32,000 bases of DNA from Vibrio alginolyticus NBRC 15630 = ATCC 17749 (GCF_000354175.2 NC_022359.1:300001-332000); one strand, 5' to 3'. Shown: positions 6,701 to 29,278, counted from the first letter of the stretch. The notes: generated by a model from the sequence alone, not told the origin. A program made the numbers and translations.

Positions 6701-6737
6701 TACTGTCTACCTCGACTCTTTATTGTTTTTTAAATAA

Positions 6738-6764
6738 ATACAGCCAGATAAGTTCTGGCTGTAT
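6738..6764 (-). terminator. Intercistronic stem-loop between lamB and malM (partial terminator or mRNA stabiliser)
   Basis: Perfect 10-bp inverted repeat ATACAGCCAG (6738-6747) / CTGGCTGTAT (6755-6764). On the minus strand it is followed by TTATTTAAAAAA rather than a clean T-run. Confidence 0.45.
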
Positions 6765-6800
6765 CATTCTAGGACAATTTAGGACTTAGTGGTTAGATGA

Positions 6801-8072: not shown

Positions 8073-8225
8073 TCTTAACTCCATTAAGGGTATTTATAAT
8101 TCTGTCTTCCCTGCTCACTCTTTTAGGTGAATATAGGCAGTAAAAACACACCTAAAGAAAGAGAGGTAAGATGGGAACGAATCCCCGTTTGTTTCAACAG
8201 TTGTGAGATTACCCGAGGCGTACAA

Positions 8226-8327
8226 GGATGACTTCCTCCGCCCTAAACTAATTTAAGGGGGATGAGAAGGGAGTAGAAAATTTACCGAATGGTGTTTTTT
8301 CGAGTCAGATCACCAATCTAGGGAGGA
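8226..8327. promoter_or_regulatory. Candidate MalT boxes in the lamB / glgX divergent spacer
   Basis: GGATGA at 8226-8231. TCCTCC at 8234-8239, which is GGAGGA on the lamB strand and lies 22 bp upstream of a TAATCT -10-like hexamer (complement of 8206-8211). GGGGGATGAGAAGG at 8257-8270. GGAGGA at 8322-8327. The E. coli MalT box is GGGGA(T/G)GAGG with core GGA(T/G)GA. Confidence 0.5.
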
Positions 8328-8518
8328 ATTAGTAAGTTTGTTCGGTTTTGAGCCGCTACAAAGTGATAGCCATTTCATATTTTTGACTCTAAGCCGTCAC
8401 ATAAAGTAATTAAATTACACGAATATTTTTATATTTAGGGTGGTTGACCTTAGTAAGACAAAGTTTTTAACTTATAGTTTCCTAAAGGTAGCAATAAATA
8501 TTAAATAAAGTATCTCCG

Positions 8519-11958: not shown

Positions 11959-11969
11959 AAACCTACCTA

Positions 11970-15247: not shown

Positions 15248-16264
15248 ATGTCTAAATATCAAGAAGCGAAACGCGTTGTACGTGAATACTTCAGCGCAAT
15301 GGAAAACGCAACTCACGAGAACGTGGCAGAAGTACTAAAAGCACACACTTCAGAAGATTACCTATGGCGTGGTGTTTACCCATTCCGTGAGCAACAAGGC
15401 GCTCAAGCAGCGGCTGACGTTTTCTGGGCTCCTTTGATGAAATCAATGACTCGCATGCAGCGTCGTCAAGACATCTTCATCGGTGGTGAGAACGAAGTAA
15501 CATCAGGTGAAATCTGGGTAATGAGCATGGGTCACTTCATGGGTCTATTCGACGCTGAATACCTAGGCATGCGCCCAACTGGCAAAATCATGAACATCCG
15601 TTACGCAGAATTTAACTGTGTTGAAAACGGCAAGATCACTAAGACTGGCCTATTCCTAGACCTTCTAGGTGCAATGGACCAAGCGGGTTGTTACCCACTG
15701 CCACCATCAACAGGTAAGCACTTCGTATACCCTGGTCCTCGTAACCACGATGGTCTACTGTTCGAAGACGCAGCACCAGAAGAAGGCGTAGCAACACTAG
15801 CACTAGTGAACAAGATGGTTGATGACCTATCTGCACTAAACGACAGCGGCGCTATGGGTTGCCCACCAGAAGTTCTTGAGAAGAGCTGGTCTAAAGACAT
15901 GATCTGGTACGGTCCATGTGGTATCGGTGCGTCTTATACAATCCCTCGTTACCAACAGCAGCACCAATTGCCGTTCCGTAACAACCTAAAAGACAAGAAG
16001 TTTAACGGCCACGTATGTCGTTTCGCAGAAGGTAACTTCTCTTGTTTCTTCGGCTGGCCAAACCTATCTAACACGCCTATCGGTGGTTTCCTAGGTATGA
16101 CAGGTGGTGAAGTACGTGCAGACATGCAAGTGGTTGACGTTTACTACCGTGACGGCGACAAGCTATCTGAGAACTGGGTACTGATCGACCTTCCTTACTG
16201 GCTAAAACAGCAAGGTCTAGACGTGTTCGAGCGTACTCAACAGATCCTAAACCCTTCTCTATAA
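15248..16264 (+). CDS. Tandem SnoaL/NTF2-like (ester-cyclase-like) two-domain protein, paralogue 1
   Basis: Good RBS (AAGAGAG, 6 nt, ATG) and no signal peptide. Colinear similarity to ORF 28283..29278: GMRPTGKIMNIRYAEFNCVENGKIT..AMDQAG vs GIPATGKTLYLRYTEMVCVENDQIT..AMNQAG; MIWYGPCGIG vs FMWYGPAGIG; LSENWVLIDL...QQGLDVF vs LKENWVAIDI...QLGYDVF. The G..PTGK...R......I.E.W...D pattern occurs once per half, as in SnoaL-like cyclase folds. Confidence 0.75.
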   Translation: MSKYQEAKRVVREYFSAMENATHENVAEVLKAHTSEDYLWRGVYPFREQQGAQAAADVFWAPLMKSMTRMQRRQDIFIGGENEVTSGEIWVMSMGHFMGLFDAEYLGMRPTGKIMNIRYAEFNCVENGKITKTGLFLDLLGAMDQAGCYPLPPSTGKHFVYPGPRNHDGLLFEDAAPEEGVATLALVNKMVDDLSALNDSGAMGCPPEVLEKSWSKDMIWYGPCGIGASYTIPRYQQQHQLPFRNNLKDKKFNGHVCRFAEGNFSCFFGWPNLSNTPIGGFLGMTGGEVRADMQVVDVYYRDGDKLSENWVLIDLPYWLKQQGLDVFERTQQILNPSL

Positions 16265-16273
16265 GAAGTCCTA

Positions 16274-16363
16274 GGGGCGGATTGTCAACCCGCCTTTATG
16301 TTGCCTGAATCCCCTCTCGGTTCAGGCGACATGCTCCCAACTCGTGCCTCAAGGATGGGGCAC
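16274..16363 (+). other. Three consecutive GC-rich stem-loops in the spacer before the porin gene
   Basis: GGCGG (16276-16280) / CCGCC (16290-16294), followed by TTTATGTT. GCCTGAA (16303-16309) / TTCAGGC (16321-16327). GTGCCT (16344-16349) / GGGCAC (16358-16363). Confidence 0.5.
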
Positions 16364-16438
16364 AACCTCAAGATAGAACCCTTATTCAAAACGGGCATGA
16401 ACGCACGGTGGCTTTCTGCGCCCTGAATAATGAGATTG

Positions 16439-17527
16439 ATGATGAAAAAGTCGACCCTTTCTGCAGTGATTTTAGCAGCGCTTACTTCTAGCTCAGCCTT
16501 TGCTGCACACACTTTTGTTAATGACGCTGGCGACAGCCTAACCATCGATGGCCGTTTCGATCTTCGCTACCAAGACCGTGGCGGTGATGACAACGGCGAA
16601 TGGAACAGCGGCAGCTCACGTTTCGGTTTGAAAGGCCAAATGGGTCTGGATAACGGCTGGACTGGTTTCGGTCACGCGGAATGGGGCTACAACTCTGGCG
16701 CGAACGGCGACAACATTTACGACCGCTTGCTATACGCAGGTGTTGATCACGAAAAATACGGCAAGATTGCTGCGGGTACTAAACAGTGGTCTACCTTCTA
16801 CGACGTAGCATGGTACACCGATTTAGGTCGTGTATTCGGTACTCGTGGCTCAGGTGTTTACAACCTAGCTGACTGGGGTATCGCATCCGGTGCTGGTCGT
16901 GCGGAAAACTCAATTACGTACCGTAATTCAATTAATGAAAAAGTGAGCTACGGCTTTACTTACCAGACCACGCGTGAAGATGTTGCTCTAGCAAGCAATG
17001 CGACAGCCTCACTGAAAAACGGCATGGGTGCTTCGATCACTTACAAACCCGTTGATGGCGTAACACTGGGTGCGGCTTACCATCAAAATGAAGTTGCGGA
17101 TCTAGACGCAAGCGTGGTTGGCGTAGAAAACGGCGACAACATGCGCATCATGCTATTGGGCGCAAACTACAGCAACGGTGGCTTCTACGCAGGTGCGACT
17201 TTCCACGTTGGCGAAAACTGGGAAGCAGTGAGCCAAGGCGGTACGGACGTAATGTTCGATACCCTAGGTGGCGAAATCTACACTTACTACCACTTCGACA
17301 ACGGCTTGCGCCCAACGTTGAACTACAACTACATGGAGGATAGTGGTGACGAGACTCAAGGTTACGAGCGTAACTTGCTGATCCCTGGTCTTGAATACCA
17401 CTTCCAGAAGAACAAATTCCTAGTTTGGACTGAATACCAGTTCGACCTAGGTAAAGATCAGTACGATGGCAGCAAATTCGAAAACCGTGATGATCAATTC
17501 GCGGCAGGTATTCGCTACTACTTCTGA
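16439..17527 (+). CDS. General (OmpF/OmpU-like) trimeric porin
   Basis: Signal peptide MMKKSTLSAVILAALTSSSAFA. Alternating beta-strand pattern rich in G/Y/N/D. The C-terminal ...FAAGIRYYF ends in an aromatic residue, typical of outer-membrane beta-barrels. The start could be 16430, 16439 or 16442. Confidence 0.85.
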   Translation: MMKKSTLSAVILAALTSSSAFAAHTFVNDAGDSLTIDGRFDLRYQDRGGDDNGEWNSGSSRFGLKGQMGLDNGWTGFGHAEWGYNSGANGDNIYDRLLYAGVDHEKYGKIAAGTKQWSTFYDVAWYTDLGRVFGTRGSGVYNLADWGIASGAGRAENSITYRNSINEKVSYGFTYQTTREDVALASNATASLKNGMGASITYKPVDGVTLGAAYHQNEVADLDASVVGVENGDNMRIMLLGANYSNGGFYAGATFHVGENWEAVSQGGTDVMFDTLGGEIYTYYHFDNGLRPTLNYNYMEDSGDETQGYERNLLIPGLEYHFQKNKFLVWTEYQFDLGKDQYDGSKFENRDDQFAAGIRYYF

Positions 17528-17535
17528 TAATACTC

Positions 17536-17580
17536 ATCGCTCACCACCTATACCCAAGTAACCTTAAGGTGGTGAGTGAT
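17536..17580. terminator. Long stem-loop between the convergent porin and hydrolase genes
   Basis: ATCGCTCACCACC (17536-17548) pairs with GGTGGTGAGTGAT (17568-17580), 13 bp with one mismatch and a 19-nt loop. There is no clear T-run. Confidence 0.5.
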
Positions 17581-17596
17581 GAAGTTCTTATCAACA

Positions 17597-18310
17597 CTAA
17601 GCAAAGTTATCTTGAAGCCAAGTAGCCATCACTTCACTAATAATTAAAGGCTGCTCAAGCGTAGATAGATGCCCACACTCAGGGATAACATGAAGTGTGA
17701 CGTTTGGGATGCATCTCTCCATGAGCAGATGATTGTCTAGCGGACAAAGCTTATCTTCTTTACCTGTTATCACCAACGTAGGAGCTTGAATGTCCGCCAA
17801 TAAAGGTCGAGCATCCGGGCGAGTTGCTAACGCTTTAGCATGTGCTTCAAATGCCTCCAAACCTACATTAACCGCCATGCCTTCGATACGCTCAGTTAAC
17901 GCTTTGTCTTGCAAACGGCTTGGATGAATCAGCACAGGCATCAGAGTGTCAGCCGTAATGCGTTCAAACTCACCACTTAACGCACGGCTAACCAGTGCAT
18001 CACGCTTTTGTGTCACCTCTGGCTTTTCATCTGCTGCATTGGTATCCATGAGGATCAAGCCTTTGACTCTGTTTGGCGCTTGACGGTACACCTCAAAGGC
18101 AAGAATCCCACCCATTGATAAGCCACCCAAGACAAACTCCTGCGGTGCGTCTTGCAACACTTTCTGCGCCAGCTGTTCCATTGACGGCAATGAGGCCAGC
18201 GTCGGGCATGAAGGCTCAACCCAACTTGGCAACGCTCGGTTGACTTCCTCAAACAATGTGCCATCACAAAGTAGTCCGGGTAGCCAAACTAACGAGGTGG
18301 GTTGCGTCAT
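17597..18310 (-). CDS. Alpha/beta-fold hydrolase (esterase/lactonase-like)
   Basis: Nucleophile elbow GLSMGG, a late ECGHLSTLEQP His motif, about 238 aa. Start moved to 18310: ATG one nt after the bicupin stop, with GGAG inside the upstream gene end (translational coupling). Confidence 0.82.
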   Translation of the reverse strand: MTQPTSLVWLPGLLCDGTLFEEVNRALPSWVEPSCPTLASLPSMEQLAQKVLQDAPQEFVLGGLSMGGILAFEVYRQAPNRVKGLILMDTNAADEKPEVTQKRDALVSRALSGEFERITADTLMPVLIHPSRLQDKALTERIEGMAVNVGLEAFEAHAKALATRPDARPLLADIQAPTLVITGKEDKLCPLDNHLLMERCIPNVTLHVIPECGHLSTLEQPLIISEVMATWLQDNFA

Positions 18311-18311
18311 T

Positions 18312-19316
18312 TTATTCTCCTGCAAGCGGCTTTGGTTGATCAGACCCAAGAATGCAATACGTCAAACTATTACCCCGCAAGTTCGTCAGTGAATAAGACG
18401 CACCTTCTGGAACATTCAGCACATCACCGCGCGTTAAAACAACATTAGCTTGTTCGCCTTGATGCGTGAGGACCACCTCTGTATCGCCATCAAAGTTGAT
18501 AAGTACTTGTTTTTCTTCTCGGCAGTGTTGAGGAATCGAGCCACCTTCAGAAAGCTCATAAGCCATGATGCTCACTTCATCTTCACTCTTTACTTGGAAG
18601 TCATAACTCGCCAAAGGGTGACCCGTTAAGGCGTATTGTTTCACGTTGCTTCCGCTGAAATCGCCTTTGATTTCACGATAATCTTTTAGCAGAGCGACAA
18701 ATGGCATCATCTCTTCTGCGGTGTAGGTATCGAAGGTCGCGAGCTCTTCTTCGGTAAGCAGCGGCATCAATTCTGATTCTTGTGGCACCGGGTCGCCATT
18801 AATAGTGTCCACGAGTGTGCCATCGGCTTTGAGGTATAAACCATAACCTTGACTGTCTTTAATAACGTTTGGATGCCAAATAACGCCGCCACCTGAATCG
18901 TCGCCGCCAAGTACCGAGAACATAAAGCCGTAATCGCGGCCAACCACTTCAAATCCACGGAAGAGATTGGTTGGAATCGAGATGACGTCACCGTGAGACA
19001 ACACCGCCTCGTGTTCGCCATCGTTCCCCCAATAAAAACGGAACTGACCTTTGAACACCAAGAAAAGCTCGGCGGTACGATGAGAGTGCAACGAATTTTT
19101 GATGCCCGGCGGTTGGCCTGCGGCACCAATATTAAAGCCCGCCGTATCGCGAATATGAACATGCTGACGACTGCTCTCTGCCACCCCAGCACCGATAATG
19201 CAGAAGTTATCTTTCAGATCACTGCCTGGCGTGCGCGCATCAATAAACGCACTCGTACCCGGAATCAGTTCCATGTAGCGGACCAGGTTATTATTCATTT
19301 TAGATTGTAGAGTCAT
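18312..19316 (-). CDS. Bicupin protein with one canonical metal-binding cupin motif
   Basis: GIKNSLHSHRTAELFLVFKG fits cupin motif 1, G-X5-H-X-H-X3-E-X6-G, exactly. A second, degenerate cupin-like half lies near the C-terminus (...GGSIPQHCREEKQVLINFDGD...GDVLNVPEG). RBS AAGGA, 6 nt, ATG. Confidence 0.78.
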   Translation of the reverse strand: MTLQSKMNNNLVRYMELIPGTSAFIDARTPGSDLKDNFCIIGAGVAESSRQHVHIRDTAGFNIGAAGQPPGIKNSLHSHRTAELFLVFKGQFRFYWGNDGEHEAVLSHGDVISIPTNLFRGFEVVGRDYGFMFSVLGGDDSGGGVIWHPNVIKDSQGYGLYLKADGTLVDTINGDPVPQESELMPLLTEEELATFDTYTAEEMMPFVALLKDYREIKGDFSGSNVKQYALTGHPLASYDFQVKSEDEVSIMAYELSEGGSIPQHCREEKQVLINFDGDTEVVLTHQGEQANVVLTRGDVLNVPEGASYSLTNLRGNSLTYCILGSDQPKPLAGE

Positions 19317-19322
19317 TGTAAA

Positions 19323-19349
19323 TCCTTGTTGTCCTTGTTGTCCTTGTTT
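19323..19349 (-). repeat. 9-bp tandem repeat x3 that triplicates the Shine-Dalgarno of the bicupin gene
   Basis: Plus strand TCCTTGTTG TCCTTGTTG TCCTTGTTT. The minus strand reads AAACAAGGA CAACAAGGA CAACAAGGA TTTACA ATG. Confidence 0.9.
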
Positions 19350-19367
19350 GGACCTAGCCTTTGAATT

Positions 19368-19421
19368 GTTAGTTACAAGCCTAAAGTTAGTTACAGACCG
19401 AAAGTGTGTTACAGACCTAAA
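19368..19421 (-). repeat. 18-bp tandem repeat x3 spanning the SDR stop codon and the downstream spacer
   Basis: GTTAGTTACAAGCCTAAA / GTTAGTTACAGACCGAAA / GTGTGTTACAGACCTAAA. On the coding strand each unit reads ..(L/F) G L TAA, giving three in-frame stops 18 nt apart. Confidence 0.9.
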
Positions 19422-20143
19422 GGTCGCCCACCATCAACCGCGATGGTATTGCCTGTCGAGAAGGTCAGAACCTCTGCCGCGGCGTACACGGCTTGAGCAA
19501 CCTCTTCATCATTGGCTAAACGCTTGAGCGGTGTGGATTGTTCTTGTTGGTTACGCCAAGCATCGTCCAAGCCTTTGACAAATTCGGTGTCGACAAGCCC
19601 AGGCGCTACAGCCAAAACGCGAATCTCAGGGGACAATGCGCGAGCTAAAGAACGGGTCATGTTTTCTGCGGCAGATTTACTCGCGCAATAAGCAATGTTG
19701 CTGCCCATCGCAGTCTGTGCCGCGATAGAAGTAATGTTCACCACACAACCATTGGCTTGCTGGAGCAAAGGCTCAAACGCTCGAACCATGGCAAAAGGCG
19801 CACGGACGTTCACTTGGAAAATTTGATCAAATAATTGGTCATCCAAACTTTGCAGATCGGCATGCGCGACGAACTTCGTCATCCCCGCACAATTGACCAA
19901 CAAATCTAGCTTGTCGCTCATCTCACTGACTTGATGTTTAAGCTGCTCAATCGCACTAGAATCTGCCACGTTCAGTTTGAATGCCAAATGCTCGTTACGT
20001 GGTAACGAAGAAAGCACGTCGTCGGCTGCTTTCTGATTACTGTTGTAAGTCAGAATTACGCGATATCCAGATTGAGCTAGCTTGCGACAAATGGCGGCAC
20101 CCAGTCCGCCACTGCCGCCTGTGACTAAGGCAAGTTTCGACAT
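19409..20143 (-). CDS. Short-chain dehydrogenase/reductase (SDR)
   Basis: TGGSGGLG cofactor motif and catalytic YCASK (YxxxK). Start moved from 20212 to 20143: ATG one nt after the upstream stop, protein begins MSKLALVTGGSGGLG. Confidence 0.88.
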   Translation of the reverse strand: MSKLALVTGGSGGLGAAICRKLAQSGYRVILTYNSNQKAADDVLSSLPRNEHLAFKLNVADSSAIEQLKHQVSEMSDKLDLLVNCAGMTKFVAHADLQSLDDQLFDQIFQVNVRAPFAMVRAFEPLLQQANGCVVNITSIAAQTAMGSNIAYCASKSAAENMTRSLARALSPEIRVLAVAPGLVDTEFVKGLDDAWRNQQEQSTPLKRLANDEEVAQAVYAAAEVLTFSTGNTIAVDGGRPLGL

Positions 20144-20144
20144 A

Positions 20145-21437
20145 TTACGCCTCTTCCACTTTGCCTTTGTAACGGCGTACACGAATATCTGCTTGCTCTT
20201 TGTGACCTGCAAAGCCTTCTAGTGCACACAAGCGAGAGCAGTATTCACCCACTTTTAAGGATGCTGCTTCCGTTACTCGCTGGTAAGTACAAGTCTTGAT
20301 GAACTTACCTACCCAAAGACCACCGGTGTATCGCGCCGCTTTCTTCGTTGGCAGTGTATGGTTGGTACCAATACATTTATCGCCGTAAGAAACGTTGGTT
20401 TCACGACCTAGGAACAAGGCACCGTAGTTGGTCATGTTAGCTAGGAAGTATTTAGGATCTTCCGTCATCACTTGAACGTGTTCAGAAGCGATATCGTCTG
20501 CTACTTCCACCATTTCTTCGTAACTATCACATACGATCACCTGTCCGTAATCTGCCCACGCTTTACCCGCAACTTCCGCCGTTGGGAGAATGGTTAACTG
20601 ACGTTCAATCTCTTTGATGGTCTCTTGTGCAAATGTCTCGCTGTTGGTCAACAAGACAGCTGGAGAGTTGTAACCGTGCTCGGCCTGCCCAAGCAAGTCC
20701 GCCGCTGCCAATTCTGGGTCACAGCCTTTCTCATCAGCAATGACTAAGGTTTCCGTTGGGCCTGCAAACAAGTCGATACCGACGCGACCAAACAACTGAC
20801 GTTTTGCCTCTGCTACAAATGCGTTACCCGGCCCTACAATCATATCGACCGGTGCAATAGTCTCCGTCCCCAGAGCCATTGCACCTACCGCCTGAACACC
20901 ACCGAAGCAATAGATTTCATCCGCACCCGCCATTGCCATCGCAGCGACAATCGCCACATTCGGCTGGCCATTAAACGGTGGCGCACAAGCAATAACACGT
21001 TTTACGCCCGCGACTTTCGCCGTCAGTACACTCATGTGAGCGGATGCAACCAATGGGTATTTACCGCCAGGGATGTAACAACCCACGCTGTTGACTGGAA
21101 TATTTTTATGCCCCAGTACCACACCAGGCATGGTTTCTACTTCGACGTCTTTCATTGAGTCACGCTGAATTTGAGCAAAGTTTCGAACTTGTTGCTGAGC
21201 GAACTCGATATCATGACGAGTCGATTCATCAAGCGCATCCACACAGGCTTGGATTTGCTCTTCTGACAGGCGGAATTGCTCCGGCGACCAGTTATCAAAC
21301 TTTTCAGACAACTCACGTACAGCGCTATCACCTTTCGATTCAATATCAGCAAGAATGTTTTCAACAATCTGACGCACTTTTGCGTCGTTTGATGCTGATG
21401 CTTCTTCAGTGATTCCGTTTTTTAAAATGCGTGCCAT
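20145..21437 (-). CDS. Histidinol dehydrogenase-like (HisD family) NAD-dependent alcohol-to-acid dehydrogenase, not in a his operon
   Basis: 430 aa with HisD-type blocks: [48 protein letters not shown]. No other histidine-biosynthesis genes are nearby. RBS AGGAGAA. Confidence 0.85.
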
Positions 21438-21484
21438 TGGGTTTCTCCTTGAACATTGAGGCTGACGAACGGTTATTTTTATGC

Positions 21485-21504
21485 TTTTGGATACGAATGC
21501 AAAA
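21485..21504. promoter_or_regulatory. Operator-like 20-bp palindrome, site A, upstream of the HisD-like operon
   Basis: TTTTGGATACGAATGCAAAA. Its reverse complement is 18/20 identical to site B. It lies 48-67 nt upstream of the start at 21437. Confidence 0.65.
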
Positions 21505-21641
21505 TCAGATTAAACACTTAATTAACATTTGACAAGTTAAGTCAACAAACCAAAAAAACCACCCTTAAGCCTTTGTATTGATTAATTTAAACAAATAAAA
21601 GTAAGTAATAAGGACCTTGATTGAGTTTAATTTTTAATCAA

Positions 21642-21663
21642 AAATGAGTTTTAGATCACATCA
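21642..21663. promoter_or_regulatory. Candidate CRP site in the divergent HisD-like / aldolase spacer
   Basis: AAATGAGTTTTAGATCACATCA matches AAATGTGATCTAGATCACATTT at 17 of 22 positions by my count. The right half-site TCACA is perfect. Confidence 0.5.
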
Positions 21664-21697
21664 TTTTTACTCATCATTTACATTTCACCGTGTTAGT

Positions 21698-21717
21698 TTT
21701 TGCATACCTTTGCAAAG
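21698..21717. promoter_or_regulatory. Operator-like site E in the aldolase leader
   Basis: TTTTGCATACCTTTGCAAAG. The left half is perfect and the right half matches 7/10. It abuts the aldolase RBS. Confidence 0.45.
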
Positions 21718-21726
21718 GAGAGAATT

Positions 21727-22476
21727 ATGAGCAATTTTAAGCAACGTCTGACTAAAGAAACGCTATTAGGTACATTTGTTAAAACCCCTCATCCTCACAT
21801 TATCGAGGTATTGGCACTGGCAGAGTTGCCTTTTGTGGTACTGGATGCAGAGCACGCACCTTTCGATCGTTCCTCGCTTGATCTGTGCATCATGGCGGCC
21901 AGAGCGAATGACCTCGCGTGCGTGGTACGAGTACAAGACAGCGCTCCTTCAACCATTTTGAACGCGCTTGACTGTGGCGCGGCGGGTGTACAAATTCCCC
22001 ATGTTTGTACTGCTGAGCAAGCGACGCAACTGGCGAAAATCTGCCATTACGGAGAAGGTGGCCGAGGGTATGCTGGTTCCAGTCGAGCAGCGCAATACGC
22101 CACTAAGCCCATGGTTGAACACTTAAAAGACAGCCGTGCGAATACGATTGTCATTGCACAAATTGAAGACCCTCAAGGGGTTGAAAATGTTGAAGCGATT
22201 GCCAATGTTGAAGGAATTGATGCGCTCTTCATTGGCCAAGTTGATCTCACTGTCGCTTATGGTGCTGATAGCGTTCATGATGAGAAAGTCGCACAAGCAA
22301 GTATGCGAGTAATCGAAGCGGCCAGAGCCGCCAATAAACCTGTTGGCATGTTTGTCGCGACGGCTCAACAAGCTCGGGAATGGCGTGAACTCGGCGTTAG
22401 CTTCTTTTGTGTTGGCTCTGAACACAAAATGATCATTGATGGCTTCAAGCAAGAGAGAAATGTGATGAATTCTTGA
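21727..22476 (+). CDS. HpcH/HpaI family class II aldolase (4-hydroxy-2-oxoacid to pyruvate plus aldehyde type)
   Basis: MSNFKQRL...G.F.....P...E.LA.....FVVLDAEHAP ... VRV ... LD.GA.GVQIPHV..AEQA ... GGRG follows the HpaI/GarL/YfaU pattern. Start moved to 21727 (AGGAGAG, 5 nt, ATG). Confidence 0.85.
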   Translation: MSNFKQRLTKETLLGTFVKTPHPHIIEVLALAELPFVVLDAEHAPFDRSSLDLCIMAARANDLACVVRVQDSAPSTILNALDCGAAGVQIPHVCTAEQATQLAKICHYGEGGRGYAGSSRAAQYATKPMVEHLKDSRANTIVIAQIEDPQGVENVEAIANVEGIDALFIGQVDLTVAYGADSVHDEKVAQASMRVIEAARAANKPVGMFVATAQQAREWRELGVSFFCVGSEHKMIIDGFKQERNVMNS

Positions 22477-22590
22477 GTTTTCTCTGATATTTACGCCTTA
22501 TCAATGTAATACTCTAGACACAGAAATCCCCTAGCCCATACACTCAGCACGTATGAGAAGGTTCAATGGCCTTAAATAAGGAGTATCACC

Positions 22591-23583
22591 ATTAAAGCGA
22601 AAGTAACTTCGATCGACGTCGCGAAGATGCTCGGCGTCTCTCAATCGACGGTATCTAGAGCATTCAGCCCGACTGCGAGTATTAGCGAGAAGAAACGCAA
22701 AATGGTGATGGATGCCGCAGCTAAGCTCGGATACACACCGAATGCCATCGCCCGAGGTCTGATTTCGAATCGTTCAGGCTTAGTGGCGATTGCGTTAGAT
22801 AGCGAATCAAACCCAATGTACGACATGCAATCTCGTGCTTTGGCTGTCGAAATTCAAAAGCGAGGCGGACAAGTTGTGCTTTGCCCTATCGACAAGGACG
22901 ACCTCGATCTCGCCATTTCACGCGCCATTGAATACCAAGTGGACGGACTCGTTATCGCCACCAGCCGTTTAACCTCACGCGCGTTTGCCCAATGCGAAAA
23001 GTTTGGCGTTCATTTAAGCTTGATTAACCGCTACGCCGAGGGTATTAATGCCAACAGCTCTGGCATTGATAACCGATTGGCGGGCCAACAAGCAGCCGAG
23101 TATTTAACGCAGAAAGGCGCAAAACAATGTGCTTACATCAGTGGTGATGCAGGTTCAATGACCAGTGAAGAGCGCTGGCTTGGCTTCTCTTCAAAACTGC
23201 AAGAGCTCGGCGCTCCATCCCCGACCTTTATTCAAGCCAAATACAGTTTTGAAGCTGGCCTAGATGCGGCGAAAGAAATCTTGTCACATACCAGTAAACC
23301 CGACGCGATTTTCTGTGCAAACGACATCCTCGCCATGGGTGTGATGGATGGTTTACGCCAAGCCGGAGCAAAGATCCCTCAAGACTTCTCAGTGATGGGC
23401 GTGGATAACATTCCGATGTCTGCATGGCCGAGTTATGATTTGACCACCATTGCTCAACCAGTCGACAAAATTGTTAAACGAGCGGTTGAAGACTTGATGA
23501 ATCGAATCAACGGCAACCTGGATGCAACTGGCGAATACCTTTTCGAGCAAGGCACCTTGATCGAACGTAGTAGCACCATTTAA
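22591..23583 (+). CDS. LacI-family transcriptional regulator 1, probable ATT start
   Basis: The HTH ...VTSIDVAKMLGVSQSTVSRAF... needs residues upstream of the first ATG (22627). The only plausible initiator after the in-frame TAA at 22573 is ATT at 22591, 7 nt after AAGGAG. The C-terminal part is a periplasmic-binding-protein-like sugar-binding fold (CANDILAMGV). Confidence 0.8.
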   Translation: MKAKVTSIDVAKMLGVSQSTVSRAFSPTASISEKKRKMVMDAAAKLGYTPNAIARGLISNRSGLVAIALDSESNPMYDMQSRALAVEIQKRGGQVVLCPIDKDDLDLAISRAIEYQVDGLVIATSRLTSRAFAQCEKFGVHLSLINRYAEGINANSSGIDNRLAGQQAAEYLTQKGAKQCAYISGDAGSMTSEERWLGFSSKLQELGAPSPTFIQAKYSFEAGLDAAKEILSHTSKPDAIFCANDILAMGVMDGLRQAGAKIPQDFSVMGVDNIPMSAWPSYDLTTIAQPVDKIVKRAVEDLMNRINGNLDATGEYLFEQGTLIERSSTI

Positions 23584-23613
23584 TAAATCCATTTTTATTC
23601 ATTCTTCATAAAC

Positions 23614-23648
23614 AAAATGCCTTGCTTTCGAGTAAGGCATTTTCTGTG
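23614..23648 (+). terminator. Rho-independent terminator after LacI-1
   Basis: AAAATGCCTT (23614-23623) pairs with AAGGCATTTT (23634-23643), followed by CTG. Confidence 0.75.
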
Positions 23649-23708
23649 ATCGCGATTAAATTTTCACCAATCGTTATTTAATTCCTCATCAATTCATCAA
23701 CCTTGTTA

Positions 23709-23752
23709 TTGACTTGTTACTTTAATGTTTTATTTTGGATTCGTATGCAAAA
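23709..23752 (+). promoter_or_regulatory. TRAP operon promoter with overlapping operator, site B
   Basis: TTGACT (23709-23714), 16-bp spacer, TATTTT (23731-23736). Operator TTTTGGATTCGTATGCAAAA (23733-23752) starts inside the -10. Confidence 0.65.
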
Positions 23753-23850
23753 TGGATATGAATTGCTCAACTAATTTATAAAAACATAAAAAGTTGTGTG
23801 ACTTGCCGACGAATGCCAATGGCAGGCCATACTAGAAACAAGGAAGAACG

Positions 23851-24846
23851 ATGAAGAAAGCAATCCTTACTTCACTTACCGCACTGGGGCTTGCATTTAG
23901 CAGTATGAATACGTTTGCAACCAGTGTTATTCGTCTTGCTCATGACAGTCAAGAAACCTCTCCCGTACACAAAGCAATGCTCTATTTCGAACAAGAAGTG
24001 GAAACTCGCTCAAACGGTGAGATAGAAGTTGAAATCTATCCGGCAAGACAACTAGGCGATGTGCGTGAGACGACTGAACTCGTACAGCAAGGCAACTTAC
24101 AAATGACGTTTGGTGCGTCAGTTTTACTCTCTCCCTACGTCCCAGAGTTTAACGTGCTCGACGTGTTCTACCTTTTTGATAGCGAAGAGCAAGCACACAA
24201 AGCGCTCGACAGTGAGAAGATCGGACAACCATTGTTGAATGCTATGGAATCAAAAGGCTTTCATGGACTTGGCTTTATGGAGGTCGGCTTTCGTAGCGTG
24301 ACCAACAACAAACAGCCAATTGATAGTATTGAGGACCTGAAAGGGCTAAAGATTCGCTCGGCATCTAACCCCACTCAAATAAGCGCGTGGAAATCTATTG
24401 GTACTGCGCCAACACCTCTGTCTTGGGGAGAAATTTTCACCTCGTTACAACAAGGCCTGATTAACGCTCAAGAAAGTGCTATCTACTCTATTTATGCCGA
24501 ACGTTTTTACGAGGCACAAAAGTACCTCTCTTTAACTAACCATATATACACCAACTACGTGTTGTTCATGAACAAATCGTTTTGGGATTCACTGCCGGCC
24601 GCACAACAAGCGCTGATCAGTGAAGTAAGCAAAGAAACCATCGCAAAACAGCGTGAGCTCGCCGCTAAGCAAAACCAAGAAGTAATCAAAGAGCTCGAAG
24701 CAAAAGGCATGACGGTTAACATCGTCCCAGACGAGGTACGCAGCATCATGAAAGAAAAAATGAATGCAGCCGTGTACCAAGATCTGCGTAGCAAGACAGG
24801 TGAAGACTTGTTTGACAACGTGATTGCCGAGATAGAACGCTTATAA
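23851..24846 (+). CDS. TRAP transporter solute-binding protein (DctP type), ligand unknown
   Basis: Signal peptide MKKAILTSLTALGLAFSSMNTFA. About 330 aa with DctP-like blocks. Directly followed by the Q and M subunits. Confidence 0.88.
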   Translation: MKKAILTSLTALGLAFSSMNTFATSVIRLAHDSQETSPVHKAMLYFEQEVETRSNGEIEVEIYPARQLGDVRETTELVQQGNLQMTFGASVLLSPYVPEFNVLDVFYLFDSEEQAHKALDSEKIGQPLLNAMESKGFHGLGFMEVGFRSVTNNKQPIDSIEDLKGLKIRSASNPTQISAWKSIGTAPTPLSWGEIFTSLQQGLINAQESAIYSIYAERFYEAQKYLSLTNHIYTNYVLFMNKSFWDSLPAAQQALISEVSKETIAKQRELAAKQNQEVIKELEAKGMTVNIVPDEVRSIMKEKMNAAVYQDLRSKTGEDLFDNVIAEIERL

Positions 24847-24859
24847 CTCCCACTCTTTT

Positions 24860-24894
24860 GCACGATCTGGCAACAGGTCGTGCTTTCTCGTTTT
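24860..24894 (+). terminator. Intra-operon stem-loop after the binding-protein gene (attenuator or mRNA stabiliser)
   Basis: GCACGATCT (24860-24868) pairs with AGGTCGTGC (24875-24883), with one G-U pair. It is followed by TTTCTCGTTTT. Confidence 0.55.
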
Positions 24895-24904
24895 GGAGGT
24901 GAAC

Positions 24905-25468
24905 ATGAAGTGGTTTCGCTTACTAGACAAATACCTAGAACCTACCCTTATCGTTATCGCGATCTCGACGATGACAACTTTACTGTGCTTGCAAATCACA
25001 CTACGCCTATTTGACGCAACGATCGCGTGGGCTGAAGAGCTGGCTCGTTATTTATTCGTATGGGCGATGTACCTGAGCATCAGCTACTGTATCCGAGATG
25101 ATCGACACATCCGCATTCGTGTGTTCATCGATAAACTTCCGGGCAATTGGACGCAATTCAGTTTGATTGTCTCTGATCTTATCTACCTTGCCTTTAGTGC
25201 CACTGTCGCCTGGTTTGGATTTAAGGTTATAAACCGCAGCCTGCAACTCGGTCAGATTGCACCCGCAATGGAAATTCCTATTGCGTGTTTGTATGCCTCT
25301 GTTTTAGTTTGCGCACTATTAAGCTGCGCGCGCCTAGTGACAAGCATTTATCAACGTGTGAACGCGTGCTCCACCAACAATGAACGAGTTCGCTTTTCTC
25401 GCCAACGCTATCGCCATATCAAAGCAAAGTATCGTACTTCTAACCGACTATTGGAGTTTAACGCATGA
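24905..25468 (+). CDS. TRAP transporter small permease (DctQ type)
   Basis: Four hydrophobic segments. GGAGG, 5 nt, ATG at 24905. Its stop overlaps the M-subunit start (ATGA). Confidence 0.85.
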   Translation: MKWFRLLDKYLEPTLIVIAISTMTTLLCLQITLRLFDATIAWAEELARYLFVWAMYLSISYCIRDDRHIRIRVFIDKLPGNWTQFSLIVSDLIYLAFSATVAWFGFKVINRSLQLGQIAPAMEIPIACLYASVLVCALLSCARLVTSIYQRVNACSTNNERVRFSRQRYRHIKAKYRTSNRLLEFNA

Positions 25469-26745
25469 CGTCTGCACTTTTGTTTGGCAGCTTTGGTCTG
25501 CTTCTGCTCATTGGCGTTCCGGTCGGTATTGCTCTGGCGGCAGCCAGTATGGTCGCGATATTAAGCCTGCCATTCCTTAACATCGAGTTTTTAGTCCAAG
25601 GAATGGTAACAGGGCTCGACTCCTTCCCTCTCCTCGCCGTCGTTCTTTTTACCTTAGCAGGTAACCTTATGAGCCAAGGAGGGATCTCAAAACGATTATT
25701 GCATGTGGCGGAGGTCTTCTTTGGCCACTTTACTGGCGGGCTTGGTATCGTGGCCATTGTGGCGTGTATGTTCTTCGCATCCATCTCTGGTACAGGGTCT
25801 GCCACTGTTGCCGCTATCGGCCTGACGATGATTCCTTCGATGGTGAAGAAAGGCTACGACCGCAGCTTTGCAGGTGCTTTAATCGCGTCCTCCGGCGGAA
25901 TTGGCGTCATTATTCCACCCTCTGTGGTGATGATCGTCTACGCGATCACTGCTGAAGTCTCCGTCACTAAGATGTTCATGGCGGGAATCATTCCTGGCTT
26001 GGTCGTCGGTATGGTATTGATCGGCTATTGTCTAATTGTGTCAAAAATGCGGGGCTACACAGGTAACGAGCGCAAAGCGACCTGGGCAGAGCGTCTTGAT
26101 GCGTTAAAAGAAGCCAGTTGGGCAATGCTACTACCCGTGATCATTCTCGGCGGTATCTATTCTGGTATCTTCACACCTACCGAATCAGCCGCCATTGGTG
26201 TGCTCTATGGCTTATTCTTTGGCATGTTTGTTTATAAAGAGCTCAAACCAGCGCAAGTGGTGAAAATCATTCTAGAGTCGTCACTGTTAGTTGGCGCTGT
26301 GCTCGTCATTGTGGGTGCGTCCGTGACGTTTGGCCGCATATTGACCCTAGAACGTCTGCCGACTGAAATTGCTCAGTTCATTCTATCGATTACCGAAAAC
26401 AAACTTCTGATACTGCTTTGCATCAATGTCCTGTTGTTGCTCGTCGGTACCTTTATGGAAACGCTGGCAGCGATTGTTATTCTCACACCAATTCTGTTAC
26501 CCATTACGTCAGCACTCGGCATGGATCCCGTTCATTTTGGTATCGTGATGATCGTGAACTTGGCCATTGGCTTTGTTACGCCTCCTCTGGGAGCCAACCT
26601 GTTTATGGCAAGTCAGGTAGGCAAAGTACCGATAGAGTCGCTCTCTAAAGCCATCATGGGTTGGATTGGAGCAATGATAGTGGCCTTGATGTTGATTACC
26701 TTCATCCCTGCCATCTCGCTATCATTACCTGCGCTTTTATCCTGA
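25465..26745 (+). CDS. TRAP transporter large permease (DctM type)
   Basis: 426 aa polytopic protein with DctM-like blocks (ISGTGSATVAAIG, FVTPPLGANLF). Confidence 0.9.
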   Translation: MTSALLFGSFGLLLLIGVPVGIALAAASMVAILSLPFLNIEFLVQGMVTGLDSFPLLAVVLFTLAGNLMSQGGISKRLLHVAEVFFGHFTGGLGIVAIVACMFFASISGTGSATVAAIGLTMIPSMVKKGYDRSFAGALIASSGGIGVIIPPSVVMIVYAITAEVSVTKMFMAGIIPGLVVGMVLIGYCLIVSKMRGYTGNERKATWAERLDALKEASWAMLLPVIILGGIYSGIFTPTESAAIGVLYGLFFGMFVYKELKPAQVVKIILESSLLVGAVLVIVGASVTFGRILTLERLPTEIAQFILSITENKLLILLCINVLLLLVGTFMETLAAIVILTPILLPITSALGMDPVHFGIVMIVNLAIGFVTPPLGANLFMASQVGKVPIESLSKAIMGWIGAMIVALMLITFIPAISLSLPALLS

Positions 26746-26778
26746 TCGTTGCACTCATAGAGCGCTTATGACTGTTAT

Positions 26779-26815
26779 AGCCACTAGATAAATACCTTTC
26801 TAGTGGCTTATTCGT
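26779..26815 (+). terminator. Terminator after the TRAP operon
   Basis: AGCCACTAGA (26779-26788) pairs with TCTAGTGGCT (26799-26808), followed by TATTCGTT. Confidence 0.65.
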
Positions 26816-26844
26816 TATCTACTTCCGATTTAATAAAAAAGCCT

Positions 26845-26864
26845 TTAAGCATTCGTATGCAAAA
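26845..26864. promoter_or_regulatory. Orphan operator-like site C
   Basis: TTAAGCATTCGTATGCAAAA is 17/20 identical to site B. No gene start lies within about 390 bp downstream. Confidence 0.5.
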
Positions 26865-27186
26865 GGAGAATTTGAAAGATATAAGGATAATTGACACCAA
26901 AATAGCTGAATATTAGCGATAAAGTCTATTTGGGTGCCTTGATCTGCATGATTATCAGTTTTGGCTTAATCATTTATTTCCATTCAAACAGATCAAAATA
27001 AATTAAGCGATTAAAAAACAATAAGATATTAGGAAATTCATACAAAAAACTTTGACCTCCTTTCTTATTAACACGTCTCGATAAGAGATAGCTTCCATCT
27101 CTCCTGTACTTTTTTAGTTTATTTTCCGCTCAATTGTTAAAAATCTGATCATCAGCACGCTATTTAAACAATCGAAAAACAATCCG

Positions 27187-27230
27187 TTGACAAAATGGCA
27201 ACATGATATATTTTGAATACGTAATCAAAA
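27187..27230 (+). promoter_or_regulatory. Promoter of the NTF2-NTF2-SSS operon with overlapping operator, site D
   Basis: TTGACA (27187-27192), 16-bp spacer, TATTTT (27209-27214). Operator TTTTGAATACGTAATCAAAA (27211-27230). The geometry is identical to site B. Confidence 0.65.
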
Positions 27231-27258
27231 CATAATTATTCAATTACGGAGGTGATTT

Positions 27259-28233
27259 ATGGCCATGGTTGGCTTCGATGAAAAGTGGCGTGATTTTCCC
27301 GACTACATTCTTGGTATCACAAAAGAGATTTGGGAAGACCGAGGTTTAAACACCTTAGAACACTACTACTCTCCCGACATTGTTGTGCGTACTCCACTCT
27401 CTATCGTTCAAGGAAACGAAGGGGTGATCAGTGCAACAATGGCGACACTGGCCGAGTTTCCCGATCGCACGCTATATGGCGAAGACGTCATTTGGTCAGG
27501 CACCCCGGAACAAGGCATGCTTTCTTCTCATCGAATCATCTCTACTGCAACACACAGTGGCAACGGCTTCTATGGGCAAGCTTCGAACCGCAAGCTTCGT
27601 TTCCGTATTATCGCAGATTGCCATGCTATCAATAACCAAATCAATGACGAATGGTTGGTTCGCGATCAAGCCGATATCGCGAAACAACTGGGCATGACGT
27701 CAGAAGAGTTTGCACGCCAACAAATCGAATTTGAAGGTGGCGTGGAATCAAGCCCATTTCCGTTCACTCCTGAAGTCGACATTCCTGGACCTTATTTGGG
27801 CGTAGGCAACGACAACGAATATGGTCAGCGCTACGAAGCAATTCTCAGAAGCCTTATGAATGCCGAGTTCTCTATAGTACCGAAAGAGTACGACCGCGCT
27901 TGCATCGGCGAATACACTGGCGGTCAAACTGCCCTATCACACTCGGAAGTCGATCATTTTTGGATGGCACTTCGTGCGTCTTTCCCAAATGCTCAATTTA
28001 CCGTTCACCATCGTATTGGCCGAGATGACGACATGATGTCACCACGCGCTGCAATTCGATGGTCTTTGCACGGTAAGCATGAGGGATATGGGATGTTTGG
28101 TAAGCCTTCGGGGAAAGAGGTTTACATCATGGGGATCAGCCACGCTGAGTTTGGCCCTTGGGGTCTTCGTCGCGAATTCACTTTGTTTGACGAGACCGCA
28201 ATCTGGAAGCAAATCCTGCTACAGCAAGGCTAA
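27259..28233 (+). CDS. Tandem SnoaL/NTF2-like (ester-cyclase-like) two-domain protein, paralogue 2 (more divergent)
   Basis: RBS GGAGGTGA. Each half carries the W....GL..L...Y.PD / FPD...........SHR..../ G..(S/P).(R/G)K......I....INDEWLVRD type pattern. The second half has FPNAQFTVHH ... GKPSGKEVYIMGISHAEF ... FDETAIWKQI. Confidence 0.72.
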   Translation: MAMVGFDEKWRDFPDYILGITKEIWEDRGLNTLEHYYSPDIVVRTPLSIVQGNEGVISATMATLAEFPDRTLYGEDVIWSGTPEQGMLSSHRIISTATHSGNGFYGQASNRKLRFRIIADCHAINNQINDEWLVRDQADIAKQLGMTSEEFARQQIEFEGGVESSPFPFTPEVDIPGPYLGVGNDNEYGQRYEAILRSLMNAEFSIVPKEYDRACIGEYTGGQTALSHSEVDHFWMALRASFPNAQFTVHHRIGRDDDMMSPRAAIRWSLHGKHEGYGMFGKPSGKEVYIMGISHAEFGPWGLRREFTLFDETAIWKQILLQQG

Positions 28234-28282
28234 CGGCTGATTAAACACTATTCATTCAAATCACAGACAGTAAGGAAGCAAC

Positions 28283-29278
28283 ATGTCACTCAACATCATC
28301 GAACAGTTCTACCAGAACTACTTCAACGCCGCAGATAAAGAGCAAAAACAGGCCGCTCTGCAAGCTTTGAACCCTGACGTAAAATGGTGCGTGGCGCACC
28401 CTGTGAACGATCTCAATGGCCCAGATGCAACCCACGAATCTTTCCTCTCACCACTTGTTAATGCTTTGCCTGATGCCGAACGCCGACCAATGATTGTGAT
28501 GCACGGCGAATACGAAGGCCGTACTTGGTACAACTCTACTGGTTACTTTATCGGTACGTTTGAACAGTCACTGTTTGGCATCCCTGCAACAGGGAAAACA
28601 CTCTACTTACGTTACACCGAAATGGTGTGTGTGGAGAACGACCAAATCACCGAATCATACATGATTCCAGACTTCATCGATGCGATGAATCAAGCGGGAA
28701 GCAACCCTCTTAGAAAAAGCTTAGGCCACGATGGCTTAGTCCCTTCTCCTGCGACGTCAAACGGTATCCAACATTCTGTTGTGTCTCTGAAAGAAAGTGA
28801 GAAGAGCGCCCAATTAGTCGAAGATATGTTGTCTTGCTTGGGTCGTTTTGATGGTCAAGATCTCTTCTCGATGGATTTAGAAAACTACTGGCACAGTGAC
28901 TTTATGTGGTACGGCCCAGCAGGTATTGGCACTACGCGCGGTATCAAAGGTTTCCGTAACCACCATCAAGCACCATTCGTGTTCGCCTTCCCTGATCGAA
29001 GTGTCGATATTGAGGTCAATTTTTTGGCCAAAAATGACTACGTATCCACAGGTGGTTGGCCGCATATGCATGGTACTCATACTGGTCACAGTGGCTGGCT
29101 CGGTCTTGCTCCGACAGGAAAACACATCGAACTTCGCGTTATGGACATTTGGCGACGCGAAGGCGATTTACTGAAGGAAAACTGGGTGGCGATCGACATC
29201 GTTCATATCCTGCTGCAACTTGGATACGACGTATTTGCACAAATGAAAGAACAGTTAGAAGGACCTAATTATGCATGA
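28283..29278 (+). CDS. Tandem SnoaL/NTF2-like two-domain protein, paralogue 3 (closest to paralogue 1)
   Basis: See paralogue 1 for the colinear blocks. RBS AAGGAAG. The stop overlaps the SSS start by 8 nt. Confidence 0.75.
   Translation: MSLNIIEQFYQNYFNAADKEQKQAALQALNPDVKWCVAHPVNDLNGPDATHESFLSPLVNALPDAERRPMIVMHGEYEGRTWYNSTGYFIGTFEQSLFGIPATGKTLYLRYTEMVCVENDQITESYMIPDFIDAMNQAGSNPLRKSLGHDGLVPSPATSNGIQHSVVSLKESEKSAQLVEDMLSCLGRFDGQDLFSMDLENYWHSDFMWYGPAGIGTTRGIKGFRNHHQAPFVFAFPDRSVDIEVNFLAKNDYVSTGGWPHMHGTHTGHSGWLGLAPTGKHIELRVMDIWRREGDLLKENWVAIDIVHILLQLGYDVFAQMKEQLEGPNYA

Follow-up and report, generated by a model that had tools for sequence, protein, structure and literature searches.

Fused SnoaL-like didomain proteins encoded next to sodium:solute symporters in a predicted catabolic island of marine bacteria

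Three open reading frames (ORFs) in a 32,000-nucleotide (nt) stretch of the genome of Vibrio alginolyticus NBRC 15630 = ATCC 17749 (NC_022359.1:300001-332000; hereafter the window, numbered from its first letter) encode proteins made of two fused SnoaL/NTF2-like domains, called here Sno1, Sno2 and Sno3. The three proteins fall into two families, and the gene set that surrounds them recurs in 87 loci, being a grouping far beyond chance. This indicates that the locus is a widely conserved catabolic island of marine bacteria and no Vibrio oddity. The Sno proteins are core members of this island and would probably be cofactor-independent acid/base enzymes of the NTF2/SnoaL type acting first on imported solutes, with a diversified family (S3) for substrate variants and a second family (S2) for a common intermediate.

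15248..16264, + strand: Sno1, 338 residues, didomain NTF2/SnoaL protein of the S3 family, orthogroup S3b; Pfam SnoaL score 39.1 bits
27259..28233, + strand: Sno2, 324 residues, didomain NTF2/SnoaL protein of the S2 family; Pfam SnoaL score 65.5 bits; modelled with AlphaFold2
28283..29278, + strand: Sno3, 331 residues, didomain NTF2/SnoaL protein of the S3 family, orthogroup S3a; Pfam SnoaL score 88.0 bits; modelled with AlphaFold2

These ORFs had been singled out in an earlier note on this DNA, whose coordinates and lengths were verified, as was the cytoplasmic appearance of the products, none of which has an N-terminal signal-like segment. A Shine-Dalgarno-like sequence lies 5' of each ORF. 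All three proteins exceed the gathering score of the Pfam SnoaL family (PF07366, 28.4 bits), with two matched stretches per protein, in agreement with the two SnoaL/NTF2-like halves that had been described. A comparison with NCBIfam produced no specific assignment for the NTF2 proteins, for the bicupin or for the transporters of the locus, with only sub-threshold 'ketosteroid isomerase-related' matches for the first. The alignment of Sno1 with Sno3 is colinear from end to end, with 31% identity (E = 3e-57), close to the one third estimated by eye, and Sno2 gives marginal matches to the other two proteins (E = 0.017 and 3e-4). On these alignments, Sno1 and Sno3 are assigned to one family (S3) and Sno2 to a separate one (S2) with the same fold and didomain plan; the greater divergence of the second protein is borne out, and the three are no equal paralogues.

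The internal duplication is real. A profile-profile alignment (hhalign) of the N- and C-terminal halves reaches a probability of 94.8% for Sno3 (E = 5e-8) and of 68% for Sno2 (E = 5e-5). Matches between half-domains of different families are weak, the best one being that of the S3 C-terminal half to the S2 N-terminal half, with 53% probability. The AlphaFold2 models of Sno3 (pLDDT 91.2, pTM 0.90) and Sno2 (pLDDT 91.5, pTM 0.90) show two alpha+beta cones connected by a linker, each chain having two H-H-E-E-H-E-E-E-E units, in line with the NTF2 cone, in which a curved sheet carries three packed helices. Given its 31% identity to Sno3, Sno1 would also fold as two NTF2 cones. Moreover, neither hidden Markov model nor structure searches placed these proteins in a different fold or in a family with a known housekeeping role, so the note's own two grounds for doubt, another fold or family and an unreal duplication, found no support.

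In a Foldseek comparison with the Protein Data Bank (PDB), both models match SnoaL-like single domains with a per-domain TM-score of 0.7-0.8, including IdmH, KstA15, ChaU, AclR, SnoaL2 and PhzA/B, with an identity to the polyketide cyclases of 11-25%. Sequence searches of the PDB with the three proteins returned weak single-domain SnoaL-like matches only, and no didomain structure. Based on the names given in databases, they could be read as polyketide 'ester cyclases' of a biosynthetic pathway, as the Pfam SnoaL scores above threshold and the best single-domain structural neighbors, the polyketide tailoring enzymes IdmH, ChaU, KstA15 and AclR, would suggest. However, the identity to those cyclases is low, and no polyketide synthase (PKS), acyl carrier protein or tailoring genes are seen in the window or among the conserved neighbors. 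We consider this reading extremely improbable, and the polyketide cyclase annotation was rejected on its gene context of importers, a repressor, hydrolases and a pyruvate aldolase.

The conservation of the cluster was addressed by a one-genome-per-species scan, which gave 80 loci with a Sno3 relative in Vibrio, Photobacterium, Halieaceae, Colwellia, Thalassotalea, Pseudoalteromonas, Paraglaciecola, Glaciecola, Microbulbifer, Endozoicomonas and Hyphomonas. Synteny was compared over 87 loci, from Vibrionaceae, Halieaceae, Colwelliaceae, Pseudoalteromonas, Endozoicomonas, roseobacters and Thiolinea, and gene types were counted over 84 loci within 10 kb of the Sno3 orthologue, with the neighbor families checked by Pfam.

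Sodium:solute symporter (SSS): 79 of 84 loci
S2-type NTF2 protein: 76 of 84
LacI-family regulator: 61 of 84
HpcH-family aldolase: 61 of 84
Bicupin: 58 of 84
HisD-like dehydrogenase: 57 of 84
Sno1-type NTF2 protein: 54 of 84
Alpha/beta hydrolase: 49 of 84
Short-chain dehydrogenase (SDR): 49 of 84
TonB receptor: 43 of 84
Amidohydro_2 protein: 32 of 84
Further 287-residue NTF2-like protein: 31 of 84
MetE-like protein: 25 of 84
Serine dehydratase: 9 of 84
TRAP transporter: 8-9 of 84

In 39 of the 87 loci, the gene directly downstream of S3a is an SSS gene, and in 31 of these the stop and start overlap by 1-22 nt; in the window, the overlap between the Sno3 stop and the start of the symporter SSS_B is 8 nt (ATGCATGA). 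There are 49 cases of an S3b gene next to an SSS gene, and the symporter gene has S3 neighbors on both of its sides. The statement that each ORF is next to a transporter gene is correct for the window, but the MFS-Sno1 adjacency is found in only two other loci, the conserved partner being the SSS symporter.

The S3 family comprises three ancient orthogroups, each with at most one member per locus: S3a (the Sno3 type) in 82 loci, S3b (the Sno1 type) in 54 and S3c, of which the window has no member, in 43. A cluster holds one to three S3 genes and one S2 gene, with one to five didomain NTF2 genes per locus (four in 43 of 87 loci), and the minimal set of one S3 and one S2 gene is seen in Endozoicomonas, Thiolinea and Hyphomonas. 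Among clusters at 90% identity, S3 has more than 1500 matches and S2 more than 7200; the S3 profile recovers 242 representatives at 50% identity with E < 1e-30, and relatives of Sno2 at 67-70% identity occur in Rhodobacterales and Thiolinea.

Some S3 relatives have twice the usual length (P0288, 692 residues; P0290, 711 residues; P0294, 538 residues), with two or three stretches matched by the profile; they appear to be fusions of two didomain proteins, with up to four NTF2 cones per chain and, in the four-domain cases, about 700 residues. In Alteromonadales, a protein of 287 residues with a weak SnoaL_2 match in its C-terminal half only is encoded after the S2 gene (31 loci, including L003 and L033 15016-15879), and a gene for a 139-residue single-domain SnoaL-like protein is found in 15 loci. 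These two genes suggest that the cluster recruits more NTF2-fold proteins than the window shows.

The residues conserved within each family are concentrated in one of the two cones. The orthogroups S3a, S3b and S3c have 22 residues in common in the C-domain, including H228, R285, D288, E299, N300, W301 and D305 (Sno3 numbering), versus 10 in the N-domain, including R67, R110, D130 and Q137, and the loop 255-270 is orthogroup-specific. In S2, 34 of the 42 invariant residues are in the N-domain (E26, Y36, Y37, R70, S90, H91, C121, E131, R135 and D136 among them) and seven in the C-domain. Judged by conservation, the better-preserved polar pocket would be that of the C-terminal cone in S3 (Sno1 and Sno3) and that of the N-terminal cone in S2 (Sno2), so each chain looks like a pseudo-heterodimer with one better-conserved pocket.

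This distribution also bears on a non-catalytic role, in which the Sno proteins would serve the adjacent symporter from the cytoplasm, as ligand-binding or accessory partners by which the substrate is trapped there or the symporter regulated. The genetic coupling of S3 and SSS genes is extremely tight, with overlapping stop and start codons and S3 genes on both flanks, and the NTF2 fold often serves for binding (PMC3924330). Nonetheless, invariant Asp, Glu, His and Arg residues are gathered in one cone per chain and kept across orthogroups at 30% identity. Also, in roseobacters and Thiolinea, whose clusters have ABC-type importers or none, S2 and S3c are found with no SSS gene beside them. A purely binding function is thus regarded as very unlikely.

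The composition of the cluster varies with the lineage. The loci of Alteromonadales and Halieaceae carry a TonB-dependent receptor, and those of Rhodobacterales/roseobacters and Thiolinea a CUT1-type ABC importer, a PNPOx-like protein and a MetE-like protein. In Amylibacter and Thiolinea, the cluster has an RraA-like aldolase-family gene (L086 14350-15042, L087 13909-14628) and no HpcH gene, apparently a case of non-orthologous displacement. The HMG/CHA aldolases belong to the RraA-like family, and HpcH/HpaI and RraA-like aldolases are known analogues; the exchange of one for the other points to a 4-hydroxy-2-oxo-acid intermediate. A serine dehydratase gene adjoins the cluster in four arrangements (in Vibrio, in seven Halieaceae loci, in Hyphomonas and, in the metagenome-assembled genome L081, inside the cluster) and is probably an accessory member. 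At the Halieaceae cluster edge, a gene for a PF03458 'Gly_transporter' membrane protein directly follows that of the serine dehydratase (L001 18779-19402 and seven other Halieaceae-type loci).

In the window, the cluster extends from 10.6 to 31.0 kb in the order serine dehydratase and SSS_A (- strand), MFS-Sno1, porin, HisD-like/SDR/bicupin/alpha/beta hydrolase (- strand), HpcH and LacI, TRAP DctPQM and Sno2-Sno3-SSS_B. Apart from the Sno genes, its members are the following:

10588..11994, - strand: Fe-S type L-serine dehydratase (Pfam SDH_alpha, SDH_beta)
11970..13511, - strand: SSS_A, a second symporter, 40% identical to SSS_B (E = 6e-116), divergent from MFS-Sno1
13851..15146, + strand: MFS transporter, anion:cation symporter-like (Pfam MFS_1; weak NCBIfam matches to aromatic-acid and sialate symporters)
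16430..17527, + strand: outer-membrane porin (Pfam Porin_4)
17597..18310, - strand: alpha/beta hydrolase, esterase or lactonase-like (Pfam Abhydrolase_1)
18312..19316, - strand: bicupin (Pfam Cupin_2, Cupin_1)
19409..20143, - strand: SDR (Pfam adh_short)
20145..21437, - strand: HisD-family 4-electron alcohol dehydrogenase (PDB matches, the nearest being HpsN)
21700..22476, + strand: HpcH/HpaI-family class II pyruvate aldolase (Pfam HpcH_HpaI)
22627..23583, + strand: LacI-family repressor (Pfam LacI, Peripla_BP_3)
23851..26745, + strand: TRAP transporter DctP-DctQ-DctM (Pfam DctP, DctQ, DctM)
29271..31004, + strand: SSS_B sodium:solute symporter (Pfam SSF)

The gap between the end of the MFS gene and the start of Sno1 is 101 nt, and that between Sno2 and Sno3 is 49 nt. 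The SSS_A gene is contiguous or overlapping with that of the serine dehydratase (10588-13511). At the junction of the HisD-like and SDR genes, TAATATG, a single nucleotide separates the stop codon from the ATG, and the SDR and the hydrolase probably begin at 20143 and at the ATG of 18310, each start being 1-2 nt after the preceding stop codon. Three tandem copies of a repeat (TCCTTGTTG) stand at 19317-19345, in the 92 nt that separate the SDR gene from the bicupin gene.

The left-hand third of the window, from 240 to 10510, is a maltodextrin/glycogen-utilization region with a C-terminal fragment of a pullulanase, a secreted endonuclease I with a carbohydrate-binding module, an alpha-amylase, MalM, the LamB maltoporin and a GlgX-like debranching enzyme, and it appears unrelated to the didomain cluster. 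Between the amylase and malM genes there is an ORF of 183 residues with no Pfam match (5068-5619, - strand).

The regulation of the cluster can be predicted from a repeated palindrome with a central CG, TTTGNATNCGNATNCAAA, the predicted operator sequence for the LacI repressor, also written TTTGGATWCGWATGCAAA. With at most two mismatches, it has five sites in the window versus 0.23 expected, all of them inside the cluster:

21486..21503: predicted LacI operator TTTGGATACGAATGCAAA, in the HisD/HpcH divergent promoter region
21699..21716: predicted LacI operator with two mismatches, at the TTG listed as the HpcH start
23734..23751: predicted LacI operator overlapping the -10 element of a promoter-like site 5' of dctP
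26846..26863: predicted LacI operator with two mismatches, the distal site 5' of Sno2
27212..27229: predicted LacI operator overlapping the -10 element of the best promoter-like site (TTGACA-16-TATTTT, 27187-27214), 5' of Sno2-Sno3-SSS

All five come from the palindrome search, and exact matches to the palindrome are found in 12 Vibrionaceae loci. The pattern is that predicted for a LacI-family regulon, with a central-CG palindrome repeated before the operons. The description of a LacI-controlled uptake locus with no described function thus agrees with the LacI gene, the predicted operators and the importers found here, and with the generic names of its members. Directly 3' of SSS_B there is a second LacI-family regulator gene (31222-32000, + strand), which runs off the end of the window; its product might control MFS-Sno1 and the porin gene, which are without an operator.

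Regarding the companion enzymes, the HisD-like protein is closer to CpHpsN (E = 1e-122) than to HisD (2e-81) in a PDB search. HpsN enzymes have the signature G-R-Y-A/S-H, and their His126 binds the sulfonate (PMC11382572). At this position the cluster protein has G-K-Y-P-L and the sulfonate-binding His126 is gone, whereas the Asp-Lys pair of the substrate loop, with the Lys contacting the anionic group, is kept; GGKYPL and GDK are invariant in 61 HisD-like cluster homologues. From this we infer a third specificity class of the HisD/HpsN family, which would oxidize an anionic, non-sulfonated vicinal diol, for example 3,4-dihydroxybutanoate to malate. The presence of an HpsN-like dehydrogenase together with an SDR and a TRAP transporter had suggested the catabolism of 2,3-dihydroxypropane-1-sulfonate (DHPS) or of another sulfonate, which was rejected in view of the absent sulfonate-binding His motif and with no sulfo-lyase gene seen.

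The bicupin conserves the HxHx3E metal motif in its N-terminal cupin, and the C-terminal cupin is degenerate (60 sequences). In the alpha/beta hydrolase, Ser88, Asp199 and His227 are conserved (51 sequences) in an order consistent with a catalytic triad, and the closest NCBIfam family, below its cut-off, is 3-oxoadipate enol-lactonase. The nearest NCBIfam families of the HpcH aldolase are GarL and RhmA. The closest PDB entry to the accessory Amidohydro_2 protein is 4dlf, which we take to be a COG3618 sugar lactonase. For the TRAP binding protein, encoded at 23851-24846, the nearest relatives of solved structure have small hydroxy-acids as ligands (pantoate, erythronate and 2-keto-3-deoxygluconate), and the SSS symporter is SGLT/YidK-like.

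The context of an inducible island, with importers, a repressor, hydrolases and a pyruvate aldolase and no PKS, leads to the reading of the Sno proteins as cofactor-free acid/base enzymes; from it we infer their enzymatic nature, the order of the steps and the chemistry. In this scheme, a polar solute would enter by way of the porin or a TonB receptor, followed by importers of the SSS, TRAP, MFS or ABC type. The first acid/base steps, hydrolysis or isomerization without cofactors, would fall to the didomain NTF2 enzymes, with the multi-copy S3 enzymes acting on the variable parts of related substrates and the single S2 on a common intermediate. The carbon skeleton would then pass to the metal-cupin, the alpha/beta hydrolase and the class II pyruvate aldolase, and the SDR together with the HpsN-like HisD-family dehydrogenase would oxidize a small anionic diol fragment to a dicarboxylate. 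The cluster would be under LacI repression.

As to the substrate, MAAs (mycosporine-like amino acids) are a tentative candidate, to which we give a rather low probability; the island would in that case be a bacterial pathway of MAA catabolism. S3a, S3b and S3c would hydrolyze off the imine-linked substituent, which varies (Ser, Thr, Gly or an amino alcohol), and S2 would hydrolyze mycosporine-glycine to 4-deoxygadusol, both reactions being cofactor-free addition-eliminations at the cyclohexenone/imine core. Cleavage of the methoxy-enol ring would be the task of the metal cupin, and removal of the methyl ester that of the alpha/beta hydrolase. The aldolase, HpcH or RraA-like, would then yield pyruvate and 4-hydroxy-3-oxobutanoate, which the SDR and the HpsN-like dehydrogenase would convert through 3,4-dihydroxybutanoate to malate. 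The MAA proposal is supported by the use that it makes of every core enzyme, by the recruitment of a serine dehydratase in four arrangements and by the alga-, coral- and sea-ice-associated hosts. Also, a review (PMC3083659) reports that shinorine and porphyra-334 are turned into mycosporine-glycine and 4-deoxygadusol by Vibrio harveyi. This fits the proposal, and the cluster proteins are present in V. harveyi and its clade. An exact look-up of the three Sno proteins finds them in V. alginolyticus and the Harveyi clade, and their 90%-identity clusters also comprise V. harveyi, V. campbellii, V. parahaemolyticus, V. owensii, V. coralliilyticus, V. vulnificus and V. anguillarum.

Nonetheless, several points weigh against the catabolic scheme or against MAAs as its substrate. 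The sequences contain nothing that identifies the substrate, the Vibrio cluster is without the MetE-like gene that might handle the methoxy group, and LacI regulators and SGLT-like symporters would suit any sugar-like compound. Literature searches, within the library that could be searched, returned no publication on this cluster and no paper linking mycosporines to NTF2 or SnoaL proteins, and the database names of the Sno proteins are all generic (ester cyclase, NTF2 family, polyketide cyclase, ketosteroid isomerase-like). No operator is found 5' of MFS-Sno1 or of the porin gene at up to three mismatches, so their co-regulation with the cluster is only putative. Finally, SnoaL has its catalytic acid/base residues, Asp121 and His119, on the last strands. 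The conserved His before the Trp of the aligned single-domain PDB relatives (8ysb, IdmH) corresponds to Asn300 in the S3 C-domain and to Glu131 in the S2 N-domain, in a comparison made against SnoaL-like PDB chains, SnoaL itself not being among the matches. On this comparison, catalytic residues would not be transferable by homology.

The same importers and regulators lead to another possible, although rather unlikely, scenario, in which the substrate would be nitrogen-free and sugar-like (a cyclitol, a branched or methylated sugar, a sugar acid or a lactone), and the NTF2 proteins would be isomerases, epimerases, dehydratases or retro-aldol ring-openers and no C-N hydrolases. The LacI-family regulator, the SGLT/YidK-like symporter and the CUT1-type ABC importer of roseobacters suit a substrate of this kind, as do the Amidohydro_2 protein nearest to 4dlf, presumably a sugar lactonase, and the resemblance of the alpha/beta hydrolase to enol-lactonases. 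HpcH aldolases, with GarL and RhmA as the nearest families, cleave 2-keto-3-deoxy sugar acids, the relatives of the TRAP binding protein bind erythronate, pantoate and 2-keto-3-deoxygluconate, and SnoaL itself is an aldol cyclase. However, no kinase, glycoside hydrolase or classical sugar-acid dehydratase is seen among the conserved neighbors, the recurrent serine dehydratase would be left unexplained, and we know of no sugar pathway with NTF2 enzymes, let alone with two to four per locus.

The aldolases and hydrolases would also be compatible with the breakdown of an algal or plant compound, a methoxylated aromatic or a phenolic one, by a route of the meta-cleavage type, akin to the 4,5-cleavage of gallate or protocatechuate, with the NTF2 proteins as tautomerases, isomerases or decarboxylases. 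The RraA-like or HpcH aldolase, Amidohydro_2, the enol-lactonase-like hydrolase, the metal cupin and the MetE-like protein are gene families reminiscent of the LigI/J/K and methyl-ester steps, and the MFS transporter weakly resembles aromatic-acid symporters. Nevertheless, the catabolism of aromatic compounds does not typically go with LacI regulation or with importers of the sugar type, the HpsN-like diol dehydrogenase would have no obvious role, and no ring-hydroxylating oxygenase, extradiol (LigB-type) dioxygenase or CoA ligase is seen among the conserved neighbors, which makes this route improbable in our view.

With respect to the significance of the cluster, it sits in many heterotrophs of algal matter, including the Harveyi, Coralliilyticus and Splendidus groups of Vibrio, Photobacterium, Endozoicomonas, Halieaceae, Colwellia, Pseudoalteromonas and roseobacters, and its members carry only generic or misleading names such as 'ester cyclase'. 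With the substrate identified, marine carbon and nitrogen cycling would gain a catabolic route, and the result would give a function to four fused-NTF2 families and to a third HisD/HpsN specificity class. MAAs are the main ultraviolet sunscreens of algae, corals and cyanobacteria. If they were the substrate, the turnover of these abundant sunscreens would be explained, the long-missing bacterial MAA pathway would be found, and its enzymes would be available for MAA analysis or remodelling. The fold and the fusion of NTF2 cones, as in Lsd19, are already known. The four orthologous didomain SnoaL-like families, their coupling to symporters, the LacI-regulated island and the new HisD/HpsN subclass appear to be undescribed.

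A comparison with known systems places the companion enzymes first. The HpsN/HpsO/HpsP module of DHPS catabolism has a HisD-family 4-electron dehydrogenase beside an SDR, as in the window; however, the HpsN signature G-R-Y-A/S-H is replaced there by G-K-Y-P-L, and no gene for a sulfo-lyase (SuyAB, Xsc or CuyA) is seen in the cluster. In the same way, the HMG/CHA (RraA-like) and HpaI/HpcH aldolases of aromatic meta-cleavage find their counterpart in the class II pyruvate aldolase that also ends the pathway proposed for the cluster, whereas the upstream enzymes of the protocatechuate and gallate pathways differ from those of the cluster.

For the NTF2 proteins themselves, the single-domain SnoaL-like proteins (the SnoaL2/AclR hydroxylases, IdmH, ChaU, KstA15, PhzA/B and the JCSG 'putative polyketide cyclases') have in common with the Sno proteins the Pfam family, the cone fold and the C-terminal pattern (E/D)-x-W...D...Q-x-G. 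They are homo-oligomers of about 140 residues, whereas the Sno proteins are fusions of two diverged cones in a wholly different genomic context. The only solved proteins that match both halves of the models, and the top Foldseek matches (E = 1e-9 to 6e-10), are the epoxide hydrolases Lsd19 (lasalocid) and MonBI-MonBII (monensin), which present two NTF2-like cones in a single chain, as in the Sno proteins, for the first, and in a complex for the second. With an identity of 10-14%, the whole-chain TM-score with the Sno models is only 0.29-0.40 and the root-mean-square deviation 15-17 Å, so that the cones have a different mutual packing in the Sno models; for the Lsd19-type enzymes, the values are 12-14% identity and a TM-score of 0.32-0.40. 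Moreover, Lsd19 and MonBI-MonBII are biosynthetic enzymes of actinomycete polyether clusters, whereas the Sno proteins belong to a predicted catabolic island of marine Proteobacteria.

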